DNA of 64,000 bases from Sphagnum compactum. Taxonomy: Eukaryota. The position numbers and the translations under genes are program-made. Location of the stretch: NCBI GenBank assembly GCA_965153455.1, contig OZ234493.1:4774001-4838000 (forward strand), read 5' to 3'. Of this stretch, positions 17,567 through 24,350 are shown piece by piece (positions within the stretch are counted from its first letter, which is position 1; each line of letters opens with the position of its first letter). Below the pieces are notes generated by a model, which saw nothing but the letters and a program-made list of their open reading frames with translations, made no database searches and had not been told where the DNA came from.

Positions 17567-20500
17567 CTATGTCAGAAAAGACCAATTCTTGAAGAGGAAT
17601 GCAATGCACCTAGAGGTCTCATCATCTGCAAAAACTTTCCAGGCAATTGCCCTTTCATATGTCACTGGCCGCCCCATACTTGATATCCGGACTCCAGCTG
17701 GAAGATATGCATATCCCTGCCACATCCACACAATATATGCCAGAAAACTTGATATCTGACATCTAGAATTTTGTGTGCCTAGATGGACCCAACAACTACT
17801 TGCAACCAAAAAAGTTTTCTTATTAGACAGTTGTGATTATGACCTTGCACCCAAGCTTTTTTATAACAGGCAAGAGGCGCTCATGTCATGACTTTCCAGC
17901 TCACCTGTTGTAAGACCTGAGTGAAGTCCGTGTAGGCAGTCTTGCGGCCATTTTCATCCAGAGTCTTCTCCCATGCTAAGTCCTGCAATGCCCCTGATGT
18001 TGTTTCCAGCATTTCCAAGCCTGCCCGGTTCCCGAAAGTGAATTCAGGTAACCCCTGCTGTAATAATACATTGTGTACAATTCGCAATGTTAGTGGTTGC
18101 TGTCTCCAGGACTCATCAAGTTCAGTCAACTTGTCTAAAACAAAGGATTAGTAGTGTAAACTGCAACTGGATCTCCACACAGCTGCATGGGTTTAGGATT
18201 TCTAAACCCGCAACAGTACTGGAAGTGAAGTAGTAGTATTATGTGACACCCACAATGTCTGGAAAAAGGTGAAGTTCTCTAGCGAATGAGCAAAGAAAAT
18301 ATATACCTTCCAAGCACAGCACAGTATGGCATCACTGTGATGCCAGAATGCCTTGAATAGCCCTTCATCATCCCCGGGTTCAGAACTAGTGAGCTCCATA
18401 CCCAAATGTAGTCTGCATGGGTCTCAATTCATTGGATAAACACACAATTGACAAATCATCATCCACTGCAGTTTCTAACAACAATTGATTTTTCTTTCTG
18501 TATGTGAACAAAAAGTAGTGGGTGAGCATGGGATAAAAGGACGTGAATGAAACCACATAATCACCATCAGATGCCTGAACCTCTTGAATCATTCTGGCTG
18601 AGAACCTGCAAATCCCTCCTGTTGCAAGTTTGAAATACAAACTGAAATCAAGAGCAACAAAGGAAACGGCAGGATCTGATACCTATAACTCTGCAGAATA
18701 CGATGTGCCAATATGACTGTATCTGGAGAGCCAGGAGGGAGTTGCGTGCCTCCTAGGTTTGCTGGTAGGTGTGAAGGAGCAAGTGCCATTGCAACCCTCT
18801 GCACTGAGGCCACTACTGTGCGCACATACCGCCGTGCCATACTTGCACATGCTTCACGTGTATGTGCCTCATATGCAAACTGGAATGCAATGGTGAGCAC
18901 CGATCGCAAGTTGCTGTTCATCATGACTGCACCAGTTTCACGACTTGCATCCGTGCCCACTTCTAATGTTGATGCTAAATCGAGAGTCCGTGATAACCCC
19001 AAACCATCCTGAAATATGATGAATATCACCTTTTCATGAGCACCGCGCGTGCCAATTACTTTGCATGGGAAGAAGTTTAGACACAATCACAAATACAGTC
19101 CCAATTGCATTAGCAAAAGCTGAGAACACACGAATACTAAAAAGGCACTACTTACAACAAGGCTGCAATCGAGAGGGATGACTCGGAATCCTGATGGTAA
19201 GAGAGGAACATCATCTGAAACTGCCACATCCACAGGTGCAAAAACAAGCTGGGCACATGCCCCCACTGCATTCTCATCAACTCCACTACATAACTGCATT
19301 CCCCATCCCCACATGTGGCCACACATAGTTTGTCAGTTAAGATCCCTTTGGTCAAACCTTGGATACAAGGAAGAGGAAGATGATGTATTAGCCTTGTGCT
19401 TTCCACAAATGGAGACTTCACAATGGCACACACAGGCTAGTTTACATTTCCACTTTCTGAAGAAACTTGGTCAAATAATCCCATAGTAATGAGAGCTATA
19501 GATGCGTTTCACGATTCACAAATTTGCAAAAAACAGGGAGTGACCTGCAGTAAGAAATTGTCACGAGTATGAATGTTGTCAGATAGTCCTCCTTGCCTTG
19601 CCAGTTTCACGACCTCCAGAAACTACACATCCAGAACCATTGGCTGAAAAAGGTCAGCACCTGGGTTTACAAATTCATACTAATGATGCATTCACTCACA
19701 AGCTCTCACTTCCTGAGGCATCAATTTTGGCAAACTAAAATATTTGCCTTCAAGGGCGAGAATGAACAGTTTCAAGAATTTCACCTCTTCTTGCTCAACT
19801 GAGTGAGCCAAAGGAAGGGGCAGCTGTCGATGACCAGCACTTCTGTTGCGAGTGCTAGAGTGGAAGGCAGCGGCAGCATCAGCATCAATATCAAAGTCAG
19901 CCCACTCTGACCGATGCTCCCGTAGAAACCGTATGAGCAGTGCTGGAGGTACATTCTGCATATAGAATCAAAGTCCCAGGTTTTGGAATCAACCCTAAAC
20001 CCTAAACCCTACTGAGAATAGGTGCTGCCGACTAGCTGAAAACTCAATGTGTCCAATACCCCTCTCCTGAATGTGTGGATCCGTGAAAAACAAATTCCTA
20101 GAAACAGAAATCATTGTGCACCAAACCCTGGAACACTGAACTTGTTGGAATTGTGGAGGCTGATACTATCTTGCATGCTACAAGCAAAGGCCTGATTATG
20201 AGCATGCACCAATCAATGCCCAGATCTTATCAGCACAGATGGGCATGACACATCACACAAAGAAGCTATCAACCTCCAGTATCCATGGACCTATAGGGAT
20301 GGGCCTTACAAGTTGGACAAGATCCATATAATGTGGAACAGAGAGAATATGTGAAGGGTTTATCAGGGAAGCATGATAGCAACCTGTAAGAGCATGGATG
20401 CCTTTGCACACAAGATACCCCCACCAAGAGAGCAGAGAAGCTTGTCAGTGGCCACCTGCCCCAGCATACCTTTGGTGGTGGGTGGTGACTCATTGAGTAA

Positions 20501-23500
20501 CACACTTACATCATCCATGCCATCACTGACAATTGCTGCCCAGCCATCATCTGGAAATCCATTCACTGCCTGGTTGAACCCTCTGCAGCAGACCCACCAC
20601 CCATGGCAACAATGGGCAACAGCAAATGGCATTCATCTTCCAATTTGGTTGGGGGGAATGCTGGAGGTAAATGCTTTCCTGCTGGGCCTTTGTTTTCCAA
20701 ATCCTGTGAACTGTCTCATTGTGCTGCAGTGAAGATGATGTAGAGACTATATATAGCATGCTCAAGTTGTTCTCAAATAGGGACTTACCTTGCAAGGCGC
20801 TGACTGAGACCCCGCAGCACAGCAGGTTGTTGTCCACTGCGCAGTCCCACAGTATCACTTGCCTCTTGTGCAAGCCGCCGCAAATGCCTCAAAGCCTGCA
20901 CAAGCCCAACAAACTGTGAGCTTGAAGTGTACAAAACATTCTCTCTGTTGCAGATACCATGTATTTTGATTCTCCAGATAGCAATAATGTACATGAAAAT
21001 CAAGGAAGGGTGATTTTCACATTGTCAAAATCTTACCCCTATTGTTGTCTTTTGTGCAAGGACAGCTGAAGACTCGTAGAGGGGTCGCAGCACCTCTGGG
21101 ACACTCCATGGCTGCAAGTTATCACAAGAGAAGCATTTCTGTTAGCAGCACATGACAGATGCATGCTTTACTTTCTCTCTCATGCCAATCTCCTGGCTAA
21201 ATAAATCTCAGTAGCCATTTTCAAATGTCTGCATCAATCAGAAGAGTGATTTCCAGTTAGTTCATACTACAAAGCAAAGCAATAGCCAGTCTAGTCTAGA
21301 AGGCAGGCATAAGAGGATCCTTTTACAGGCCCGAAACCCTAAAACCCTACCTCCAAGTCTAGATGATCAACAATGTGAATAATGCAACCCCCTCCATCGC
21401 ACTGCCGGATCAAGTAACCACTGGGAAACATCTCTGCCCTCACAAAAGACTGGACAGGAGGCATTGTAGGCCCTCCCTGTGCCCCAGTCAATGAACGTTC
21501 ACAAATCTGCACAAATGCCATGACTCCATTTAGACACTCGCCAAAGACTGTCAAGTGGACCTCACATCTAGGCTCAATTATGAGTGGTAGTGGCGGTCCA
21601 GCAATTGTTGAATTCTCTTTTAGGGACAGTGATCCGGGTGACATTCATCAGACTTTCCTCCTTCCAACTATGTTACACCCAGCACCAGCAAGCCCTGGTG
21701 TGGACATCTAGTCTGAATTGAGAATGATTTTTCATCAACATACCACCAAGTTTCCATCTTCTAGAAGAGTGGTATATCTTAGAGTGCAGAAGTCTCGAGG
21801 AGGAGCCAATGTTGTTGGTGCATACATCTGCCATAAAAATATCCAAATTTCAGTTTGCGTATGGTGCTCTGGCAATTTACCATTCTAGAACATGAAAGTT
21901 TCGCAAGAATGTATGTCTTTTCCAGTTGCTGTGGACAGCTTTTTTTAACAGACAGCGCCATGTTGCTGCTTGCTAGAGGAAAAGAAAAGTATTATGATGA
22001 AAGTGGGAGGTGACTGTGGTCATAGGTGTGCACATAGTCTTGAACTGACCTGTGTGTAAATAAGCTCTACAGTTCCACCATTTCCTGTTGGAAATGAACC
22101 CAATATATCTAGATGACGGCAGTCTGGGAGCCATGACTGCCGGTCTTTCAAAATCTCTGCAACCTAGTTGATTAGCACAGTAACGCAACCACGGCTGGTC
22201 AGCTCAAAAGAACAGAGCTCTGGAGTGAAAGTCATCTATGAAATTTGGATGAGTATCAATGCATGCATATAAAGGAGTTGAAAAGAACACTTGCACTTCT
22301 GCTAGGCAAAATTCTGCAATAGCCCCAGTACTTGATTCAGAAATTGACAATCTGAGTGAGACATTTCATTACCTTGCTGGGCTCTAGCCCCACCAAGCCA
22401 CAAGCTCTTGCCGCTACTCCCGGACAACCATGAGATATGGAGACAATGCCAATGGCATCCGGACCAGGCTACACCCAAAGAATCCCACTCGCATCTCCGG
22501 TTTGAGTTACTAGATGATTTTCAAGTTACAAATTTGACCAGACAGTCAGATAACCCACCATAACGTCTGTACACACAAATATCAACAAACATCAAGATCT
22601 TCCATCAAAGAGGATCTGCAAGAACACACCTTCATACCCGGTAACTGAATCCAGTCAATTGCAGTTCCCGTGGCCTTAGCAACAAACTCTGTTACAGTCT
22701 CCTCTGCTATTGACAACAGTCTGCCAATCCCAACAGATGCATATTGGAAGATCACATGGTTTAATAATACTCCTCATCATCTGATGTGCCAGTTGTGGGA
22801 AATAACTTTGGAATGACCCTCTTGCCAGCAAGAACTACTCCTAGGTTATCCCAGAAACATCAAGTTCTGACAAACCCAAGGAAGAATTCAATCTTTCAAG
22901 TGAAAATCTAAGAGCTCACAAGGCCACAAAAATGAAGCAGACAATATTGTGCAAGCTACTGAACAAACCAGGAGTGCAACATTCTAGAGGTGGCTGAAAT
23001 CCCAATTGGAGAGAAGATTGAGTCACACAGCTCGGGGTTTGACAACTGACCCAGCAGGGCCTGTAGCACGAGGTGAATGTTGAGGAGTGGGCTGTGGTGG
23101 CAGACCGACAGTAACCACTGAATCTGAGCTAGTGTCGGTGGAGGCCATAGCAGCCTGCACATGCACCCGCACATTCATGATGATTTACCCTGCCACTGGT
23201 GTTGAGCTTTCATTCCCTCCAATTTGCCCACCCCCTATTACCATTAGCCCCCCTTCTTCCTTCATAGGATGCTGCTGCAGCAGCACCTACCGCATGTCAC
23301 AAATTGCAGATTTCGTAATGGTATTGGGATACTGAATTGAGCCTCAAGATTGTGGTCCTACCCTATAACTCAAGGGTTGGTTACCCTCATGATCAACAGA
23401 ATTTAATTTTGTCCTCCAGGGAGTTAGTTGTATTGAGTTGCAATACCTGATCTGCTGGGAGTTGATGCTTATTGCTACTAGGTATGGGAGCCACCTGATG

Positions 23501-24350
23501 CTGCTGCTGCTGCAGTTGCCGCCGCAGGAAGTGATTGTCAAGGGTGAGTTGTGAGGTGTGTTTCGCAAGCCGCTCATTCTCCCCCATCAGAAGTTTGTTC
23601 AGTGCTGTCAGCTTTGCGTTCACACTCACCAGCCGAGTTGCTTCTTTTCGCTGCTTCTCCCGACACCTGCAAAAAGTTTGCCATACTTTTTTTTTTTTGG
23701 GAGTCAGTCAGGAAACCCTCCTCCCTCCTCTTCCTTCTCCTCTCCCCCCTCTCTCTCTCTCCAAGTTCCACTGCAATAATAAGAGGAGGGTTCCTCCAAA
23801 CAGGACTCCCATCCAATGATCGTCATGACCCAAGTTCAAGTCTTGTGAATTGTTCTCTCATTAGGAGAAGATCTCTCACATGATACTCTGACACATTCAT
23901 AAGCTGCAGCTGCATTAAGAAGAATTGTTCACATCCTGATGACTATAAAAGCTGTGAATGGGAGTGTCTTCTTGTAATACAATTGCCATGCTGATTCATC
24001 AGTACTGGGGATCATTCTGAACAGTTGCAAGGAAAGCAAGAAGTTCTACAAAATGCTAGTGTGGAGATGAAGGGAGAAGGAAGCAAAGGAAGATGTGAAA
24101 GCAGTTGCGACATTGGAGGAGGGCAATGAAAGGCGGAAGGAAGGAAGGAAGGCTTTGTGCAGCAAGCATCACACCGTCTGTTCTGGAACCAGACTTTGAT
24201 CTGCTTGGGTTCAATGTTGGCAAGGATAGGGCAGTCCTTGATGAGCTGCTGGCGTCTGATAGAGCTGGGCTTGGGGCACTCATGGTACACACGCTCCAAA
24301 GCCTCCACTTGCTCATTTGTGTAGCGAACATATTTTCCAGATGCATCCAT
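17567..24350 (-). CDS. C3HDZ: Class III homeodomain-leucine zipper transcription factor (REV/PHB/PHV family), 18 coding exons, 846 aa using exon 3b
   Basis: Exons (minus strand): 24350-24175, 23666-23447, 23154-23051, 22720-22630, 22468-22373, 22163-22050, 21827-21744, 21506-21351, 21111-21037, 20895-20789, 20582-20384, 19955-19785, 19622-19545, 19293-19156, 19008-18683, 18412-18307, 18054-17905, 17716-17567. All introns are GT..AG with matching phases; total 2541 nt. Family motifs: GKYVRYTNEQVEALERVYHECPKPS..IKVWFQNRRCREKQRKE (HD), zipper VNAKLTALNKLLM, START WIQLPGMKPGPDAIG and MYAPTTLAPPRDFCTLRYT, NVPPALLIRFLREHRSEWAD, LLPSGFRVIPL, RSVLTIAFQF, MEKHLA WHHSDAILCC..AGLEMLETT..SSMGRPVTYERAIAWKV..FKNWSF. 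The exon 2 end and exon 3 choice are the least certain parts. Confidence 0.95.
22459..22640 (-). promoter_or_regulatory. miR165/166 complementary site split by intron 4 (exon 4/5 junction)
   Basis: The spliced sequence CGGGTATGAAG|CCTGGTCCGG matches the complement of miR166 (GGGGAATGAAGCCTGGTCCGA) with two mismatches at the miRNA 3' end and one terminal G:U. This is the standard position in land-plant C3HDZ genes. Confidence 0.9.
23189..23286 (-). other. Candidate alternative coding exon 3a of C3HDZ (VLLQQHPMKEEGGLMVIGGGQIGGNESSTPVAG)
   Basis: Acceptor tag|GTG at 23289-23287 and donor GG|GTAAAT at 23188. It is 98 nt, phase 0 in and phase 2 out, the same as exon 3b, and open in the C3HDZ frame. 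Confidence 0.45.

Follow-up and report, generated by a model that had tools for sequence, protein, structure and literature searches.

We analysed a 64,000-nucleotide (nt) stretch of the Sphagnum compactum genome (GenBank assembly GCA_965153455.1, contig OZ234493.1, positions 4,774,001 to 4,838,000 of the forward strand). This whole stretch is called the window, and its own coordinates are used throughout. The window contains a class III HD-Zip (C3HDZ) gene on the minus strand, and our subject is exon 3 of this gene, which encodes part of the linker between the leucine zipper and the START domain. A preliminary description of this DNA had recognized two exons in this region, 3a (23286-23189) and 3b (23154-23051), separated by a 34-nt spacer (23188-23155), and had proposed either that the two are mutually exclusive or that a nonsense mutation is rescued by cryptic splicing. 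Our analysis points to a different structure. Exon 3 very probably consists of 23154-23051 only, whereas 3a and the spacer are in all likelihood the remnant of a longer ancestral moss exon 3 that is now spliced out. The features of the locus are as follows (aa, amino acids).

17567..24350, minus strand: complete C3HDZ coding region, 831 aa with short exon 2 and 847 aa with long exon 2
23495..23666, minus strand: exon 2 core, ending the zipper with ..LRRQLQQQQHQ; upstream donor CATCAG/GTGGCT; exon model and RNA contig
23447..23494, minus strand: alternative 48-nt tail of exon 2, VAPIPSSNKHQLPADQ; downstream donor GATCAG/GTATTG; RNA loose end and annotated isoforms
23287..23446, minus strand: ordinary part of intron 2; the old acceptor gcggtag/ ends at 23287; RNA depth 15.7, like other introns
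23155..23286, minus strand: probable vestigial 5′ extension of exon 3 (3a plus the spacer), now the 3′ end of intron 2
23185..23187, minus strand: TAA stop, private to this genome; TAT in relatives
23051..23154, minus strand: exon 3 proper (3b), AAMASTDTSSDSVVT..GPAG, the conserved pre-START linker; identical in a related genomic contig (L001, below); RNA joint
22630..22720, minus strand: exon 4, LLSIAEETVTEFVAKATGTAIDWIQLPGMK, beginning of START; exon model, joints 23051 to 22720 and 22630 to 22468

The C3HDZ gene is intact and expressed, and is not a pseudogene. Its coding sequence (CDS) runs from 24350 to 17567 in 18 coding exons. When the S. fallax protein P0001 was mapped onto the window with splicing, all 18 exons were recovered with GT..AG introns and a complete frame of 831 codons, with seven amino acid differences. 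The annotated S. compactum model CAM6032612.1 (P0140) showed no mismatches to the conceptual protein of the window. The sole difference between this model (829 aa) and the window protein (831 aa) was two gap columns, presumably a 6-nt difference at one splice-site choice. Pfam domains in P0140 included a homeodomain (E = 1.2e-15, residues 6-64), a START domain after the linker (E = 5.5e-47, residues 155-361) and a C-terminal MEKHLA domain (E = 1.5e-41, residues 686-827). MEKHLA sets class III apart from class IV HD-Zip proteins. In addition, the homeodomain is followed by a leucine zipper, ..LTALNKLLMGENERLAKHTSQLTLDNHFLRRQL, which could be aligned with all C3HDZ proteins compared.

The DNA of the exon 3 region is as the preliminary description had read it. 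From 23286 to 23051 on the minus strand, one frame gives VLLQQHPMKEEGGLMVIGGGQIGGNESSTPVAG, a single TAA at 23187-23185 and then IIMNVRVHVQAAMASTDTSSDSVVTVGLPPQPTPQHSPRATGPA. The TAA lies in a donor-like context, overlapping the GT of GGCAGG/GTAAAT, and the CAG preceding 23154 has an acceptor context; the TAG preceding 23286 is also acceptor-like. Lengths of 3a (98 nt) and 3b (104 nt) are each 2 mod 3, and either exon alone leaves the gene open, although the protein sizes given for the two forms (844 and 846 aa) need a small correction: translated from the ATG at 24350 with the donor at 23447, they are 845 aa (3a only) and 847 aa (3b only). Use of both segments is disruptive, as had been stated, since read-through of all 236 nt stops at codon 165 and removal of the 34 nt causes a frameshift with a stop at codon 203. 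A gap of 34 nt is too short for a plant intron. However, the openness of the 3a frame was dropped as evidence because open windows are too common in the introns of this gene: among 132-nt intron windows read in a fixed frame, 36.5% had at most one stop and 10.3% had none. Moreover, BLASTP found no alignment between 3a and 3b at E <= 100. The two segments are dissimilar and thus did not arise by exon duplication.

Splicing of this region was assessed by comparing four sequencing runs over 22400-23900: X1 and X2 (metatranscriptome contigs), X18 (DNA-like contigs) and X23 (raw RNA reads). X1 and X2 contained the same contigs at the same depths and were counted as one data set. The ten X23 reads all lay outside 22757-23623, and contigs of the Logan type drop rare variants. 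In X1/X2, 16-letter loose ends at 23446 and 23494 matched the start of exon 3, and therefore exon 2 is joined to 23154 from both donors, 23447 and 23495. A joint from 23051 to 22720 was present in the same RNA contigs at a depth of 74.8, and three raw reads covered the joint from 22630 to 22468. Thus, of the junctions that had been proposed for counting, 23447 to 23154 was found, alongside 23495 to 23154, whereas 23447 to 23286 and 23189 to 22720 were absent from the RNA contigs; no joint or loose end of any kind occurred in X1/X2 at 23286/23287 or 23189/23188. RNA depth over 3a (23165-23266) was 15.7-18.1, compared to 15.7 in the flanking intron (23318-23419) and 105-419 in exons.

Annotations gave the same picture. 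Each of the 15 proteins listed for the 90% cluster of orthologues (S. fallax, S. jensenii, S. tenellum, S. magellanicum, S. balticum, S. troendelagicum, S. compactum and two JGI calls) lacked 3a; among them are six isoforms of S. magellanicum and two of S. fallax. Gene calls that skip the segment read QQQQHQ/AAMAS (P0001, P0002), LPADQ/AAMAS (P0136, P0137) or, at a related locus, PPDQ/AAVGS (P0003), and neither the protein searches nor the orthologue cluster listing yielded a model or gene call that includes 3a.

Genuine alternative splicing in the zipper-START linker is confined to exon 2, where the choice of donor, 23495 or 23447 at a distance of 48 nt, yields proteins of 831 or 847 aa. Existing annotations of S. 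fallax and S. magellanicum already include this choice, the long exon 2 (LPADQ/AAMAS) being used by their 847/846-aa isoforms. The exon 2 RNA contig (23494-23667) had a depth of about 105. With regard to the 48-nt tail VAPIPSSNKHQLPADQ added or dropped by the donor choice, depth was about 105 for the shared exon 2 contig and about 20 for the tail contig, the latter including the 15.7 of unspliced RNA; the short form looks dominant.

One further joint in X1/X2, from 23290 to 23495 (depth 101.9, side of 21 letters), was rejected as a C3HDZ junction. Its ends are CG..AC on the plus strand, that is GT..CG in gene orientation, with no AG acceptor, and loose ends beside it at 23270 and 23516 each carry 255 unlike letters. 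It appears to come from a foreign contig rich in CAG repeats (depth about 102) that touches two short CAG/CTG stretches of the gene. Such a splice-like mimic is a trap for junction counts at this locus (23270-23290 and 23495-23516). The X18 contigs contained two other joints, 22473 to 23650 and 22478 to 22624, with sides of 27 and 30 letters and non-canonical ends. In addition, one DNA-like X18 contig matched exon 2 up to 23494 and then continued with 255 letters unlike the window; it may derive from a paralogue that stops resembling the window gene exactly at the upstream donor.

The origin of 3a became apparent from an alignment of the zipper-START linker in 16 bryophyte, lycophyte and seed-plant C3HDZ proteins together with the window read through its stop. 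In liverwort, hornwort, lycophyte and Ginkgo proteins, ..Q is joined directly to A/G-x-A-S/T-T-D-T-S with no insert. Four Physcomitrium genes, Ceratodon C3HDZ1 and the S. compactum paralogue P0013 carry an insert at the same place, between ..RLxSQ and AG[VI]ASTDTS, which ends in ..LKKEGAVNGGDESSTQGGICVKVHGQ/AGVASTDTS and whose motif is ..LKKEGAVNGGDESSTQGGICV[KR][VIL]HGQ. This insert was retained in all 34 listed Physcomitrium and Ceratodon isoforms of insert-bearing genes that cover the linker. The window sequence MKEEGG..GGNESSTPVAG, stop, IIMNVRVHVQ/AAMASTDTS aligns with the moss insert at the homologous position, and 3b aligns with the conserved STDTS..PAG block present in all land-plant C3HDZ proteins aligned. 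When the 44 window residues were compared with P0014 by BLASTP, they matched at one place alone, residues 137-168, just before AGVASTDTS, with 17/43 identities (E = 0.004 for this single comparison). At the other end, VLLQQHPMKEEG of the window, directly after the 23287 acceptor, matches ILQSPLKKEG, the insert start of PpHB10 isoform X1. The protein-level match of 23286-23155 to the moss insert, at exactly the homologous place, exceeds chance.

The Physcomitrium linker motif given in the preliminary description was thus borne out by the alignment, by BLASTP and by the PpHB10 isoform start. Its proposal of an ancestral exon with an uninterrupted linker holds as well, in that 3a and the spacer are homologous to an insert that runs on directly into ..ASTDTS.. 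in Physcomitrium, Ceratodon and the Sphagnum paralogue. In the window DNA, 3a and the spacer are also physically contiguous with the retained exon 3. From this contiguity we infer that insert and exon 3 were contiguous in the ancestor; the Physcomitrium genes and the Sphagnum gene with the insert are known here as proteins. A search of the full-text literature returned no description of a moss C3HDZ linker insert or its splicing, although the 2006 family papers (Floyd et al.; Prigge and Clark) or their supplements may contain one; the C3HDZ passages of PMC3773374 include none on the linker. In a search of metagenome contigs with the 49-aa 3a peptide, none of 598 pattern matches was confirmed by tblastn, which is not evidence of absence because the contig L001, from the same collection, encodes a 92%-identical segment.

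L001 is a 22-kb genomic contig from a metagenome collection that was found by an exact 29-nt search. It is 96% identical to the window over the whole gene and is closer to S. fallax at six of eight diagnostic residues. Divergence and selection were examined in this one DNA pair, window versus L001, with the following differences.

Introns: 133/4108 (3.24%)
CDS: 34/2496 (1.36%)
Exon 3 plus the 48-nt exon 2 tail: 0/152 (0%; tail alone 0/48)
3a plus spacer: 9/132 (6.8%)

The ordinary part of intron 2 (23287-23446) had four substitutions and one indel. The rate in 3a and the spacer was above that of the CDS (binomial p = 9e-5) and, if anything, also higher than that of the introns (p = 0.028). The codon changes in this segment were V>M, G>W, Q>K, V>A (2 nt), stop/Y, I>I, I>V and R>W, that is, one synonymous, one stop/Tyr and six non-synonymous. 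This pattern indicates that 3a and the spacer are probably under relaxed selection and resemble unconstrained sequence.

Where the window has TAA, L001, the unspliced X1/X2 contig and the X18 contig have TAT (Tyr); the X18 contig is considered DNA-like because its depth is even, near 22 in 30/30 bins. The residue is likewise Y in P0123, a genomic open reading frame (ORF) with an S. magellanicum-type QQSPR. Close to this position, both P0124, which is a more distant locus, and Physcomitrium (GGIC) have C. These residues suggest that the order was likely TGT > TAT > TAA, the last step being private to the lineage of the window. The TAA has no effect on the mRNA, and its overlap with the GT is incidental.

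To place the gene within the family, a tree with a midpoint root was built from 18 full-length proteins picked from 120 hits listed. P0001 and two other insert-less proteins of Sphagnum type formed a clade (clade A, support 100/99). The sister clade (clade B, 96/95) contained the insert-bearing S. compactum P0013 and all Bryopsida genes, including the insert-less PpHB12-type pair. This topology suggests a duplication before the Sphagnum-Bryopsida split, with one copy lost in Bryopsida. The insert is older than the split of the two moss C3HDZ clades because its relic occurs in the Sphagnum-only clade and the insert itself in the sister clade. It was dropped at least twice, in the window gene and in the PpHB12-type gene.

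Other Sphagnum-like loci can be arranged as a series of stages in the decay of the upstream segment. They were genomic ORFs from Logan, JGI and ENA contigs (P0124-P0127) and were compared as proteins. In P0124 (68% identity) the segment is open and very insert-like, GGNQSSTQGCIMNVRVHAQ. In P0125 the ends VLWQHPMK..VYVQ are kept and the middle is unrelated, as after compensated frameshifts; its spliced transcript P0003 skips the segment. P0126 and P0127 had no trace of it.

Based on these observations, the following history is proposed. The ancestral moss gene would have had an exon 3 with a 5′ extension, which in Physcomitrium, Ceratodon and the other Sphagnum paralogue still codes for a linker insert of 28-60 residues. 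In the lineage of the window gene, splicing takes place at the inner, ancestral acceptor ..GTGCAG/GCT (23155/23154), and the old extension is therefore lost with the rest of intron 2, as its last part. Released from selection, the extension is decaying and has acquired the TAA in the window genome. Skipping most likely came before the stop, because it is annotated in species whose relatives carry TAT. Properties expected of a vestigial segment were found here: homology to coding sequence of relatives and contiguity with the retained exon; exclusion from mature mRNA, rare isoforms aside (junctions into 23154 only, intron-level depth, 15/15 models); and relaxed selection (9/132 differences, the TAA and the scrambled middle of P0125, with one pairwise DNA comparison).

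Several observations weigh against a remnant that has long been out of use. Similarity to the Bryopsida insert is still clear, even though the clades separated before Sphagnum and Bryopsida diverged; a long neutral decay should have erased it, so the segment either fell out of use recently or is still used to some extent. L001, P0123, X18 and the more distant P0124 all have a fully open frame, and the old acceptor has kept its AG in the window as well as in L001. Since Logan contigs drop rare variants, they may have missed a long isoform that is minor or confined to certain tissues.

These points are the strength of the alternative that 23287 is a living 3′ splice site, used in some tissue or condition to produce an isoform with 44 additional residues carrying the moss insert. 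A recent nonsense change would then have turned the window's copy of this isoform into a substrate of nonsense-mediated decay, with the main isoform unaffected. In its favour are the open frames, the retained acceptor AG and the insert-like residues that have outlasted an old gene split, and contigs cannot show absence where raw reads have no coverage. However, the RNA contigs contain no junction into 23286 and their depth there is that of introns; none of the 15 listed orthologue models, among them the S. magellanicum and S. fallax isoforms mentioned above, has the segment; it diverges at least as fast as the introns, mostly by non-synonymous changes; and 10% of intron windows of the same size are stop-free by chance. 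We consider a living isoform unlikely. A stronger version, in which the acceptor at 23287 is used in some Sphagnum tissue or stage (e.g., the sporophyte), so that a clade-A gene has a regulated long insert isoform and the window species is a natural nonsense knockout of that isoform alone, is somewhat less probable still. If true, this isoform-only knockout would be a ready-made natural experiment on the function of the insert.

It is also rather improbable that the TAA is an assembly error in place of a TAT like that of the relatives. In favour of an error, TAT is the codon in three related genomes, and the site has no coverage in reads of the same species. On the other hand, the difference is a substitution and not an indel, and the window differs from the TAT relatives at many other sites of the segment (e.g., CGG versus TGG), which marks a distinct lineage in which a private change is unremarkable. 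Whether or not the TAA is an error, the conclusion on splicing is the same.

A reverse order of events, nonsense first and rescue second, is very unlikely. Under this scenario, the long exon would have been included in every mRNA before the TAA appeared, and the inner acceptor would be a compensating cryptic site used in the window genome only. This agrees with a long ancestral exon, with the presence of the TAA and with an mRNA that avoids it. However, the same inner junction is annotated in seven named Sphagnum species, and the TAT relatives include both the S. magellanicum-like P0123 (QQSPR) and the S. fallax-like L001, so that the segment is skipped in species whose relatives have no stop. 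The acceptor at 23154 corresponds to the junction position of liverwort, hornwort, lycophyte and insert-less moss proteins, and is thus common to non-moss land plants and not cryptic. Furthermore, other substitutions in the segment were already non-conservative in TAT genomes. The cryptic-rescue interpretation of the preliminary description is therefore not upheld.

Its other interpretation, that 3a and 3b are mutually exclusive exons included one per mRNA to give an 845- or 847-aa protein, finds some basis in their lengths (both 2 mod 3), their ..AG codon ends and their usable AG/GT contexts, but can hardly be sustained given that 3b and not 3a was found in mature mRNA (no 23189 to 22720 junction and none into 23286, with the reservation that contigs could miss rare isoforms), that no model or gene call includes 3a, that the two are not homologous alternatives (the counterpart of 3a is the moss insert and that of 3b is the STDTS..PAG block, with no similarity between 3a and 3b), that 3a evolves neutrally, at an intron-like or faster rate, and that a 3a-only protein would lack the STDTSxDSVVT..PAG block kept by every C3HDZ protein aligned. 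A bar to joint inclusion formally exists, in the short 34-nt gap and in the resulting stop or frameshift, but one old exon would be expected to show it just as well.

A side observation concerns the neighbouring junction. In the joined mRNA, the end of exon 4 and the start of exon 5 read ..GGGTATGAAG/CCTGGTCCGG.., and the stretch 22630-22645 joined to 22455-22468 (minus strand) gives ..CCGGGTATGAAG/CCTGGTCCGGATGC... This resembles the miR165/166 target site, which in C3HDZ genes lies in the START-coding region across the exon 4/5 junction, and is a candidate for such a site.

Removal of a vestigial extension of exon 3 has consequences for both annotation and evolution. The locus has a single exon 3, its mRNA carries no premature stop, and the public models, in which either form of exon 2 (short or long) is joined to 23154, are correct. 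As the relic shows, the moss C3HDZ linker insert predates the split of the two moss C3HDZ clades and was later lost from the mRNA via an inner acceptor. The relic could also be used as a marker to date insert loss across Sphagnum genomes.

Comparison with known systems helps to place this structure. The closest counterparts of the lost segment are Physcomitrium PpHB10, HB11, HB13-type and HB14 and Ceratodon C3HDZ1, in which ..[IL]LQxxLKKEGAVNGGDESSTQGGICVKVHGQ before AGVASTDTS is homologous to 23286-23155 of the window. In those genes the insert is kept in the protein, whereas in the window it is spliced out, contains a stop and evolves like an intron. S. compactum CAM6032612.1, S. fallax BDL97_07G079300 (831/847 aa) and S. 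magellanicum CY35_07G079600 (830/831/846/847 aa) represent the same gene, with 3b as exon 3 and a short or long exon 2. Their coding model is no different from ours, and the vestigial segment lies in intron 2, outside any annotation seen. The PpHB12-type gene (P0010/P0193/P0194) and jgi_863 resemble the window gene in having ..RLSGQ/AGVASTDTS without an insert. However, the PpHB12-type gene lies inside the insert-bearing clade B, and its loss of the insert was therefore independent.

With mutually exclusive exons, the locus shares two adjacent segments of the same phase and similar length, each of which keeps the frame; it differs in that no transcript evidence supports 3a, the two segments are dissimilar and the space between them is too small for a viable intron. 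A known general change in gene structure is exon shortening by a shift to an inner 3′ splice site (intronization, which leaves a vestigial pseudo-exon). The likeness here is a former coding sequence, contiguous with the exon and removed with the upstream intron, which gathers non-synonymous changes and a stop; the difference is that the window segment has stayed more similar to its counterparts across an old paralogue split than a long-dead segment should. The structure is a specific new instance of this known exon shortening, in an ordinary gene, and reveals no new splicing mechanism.

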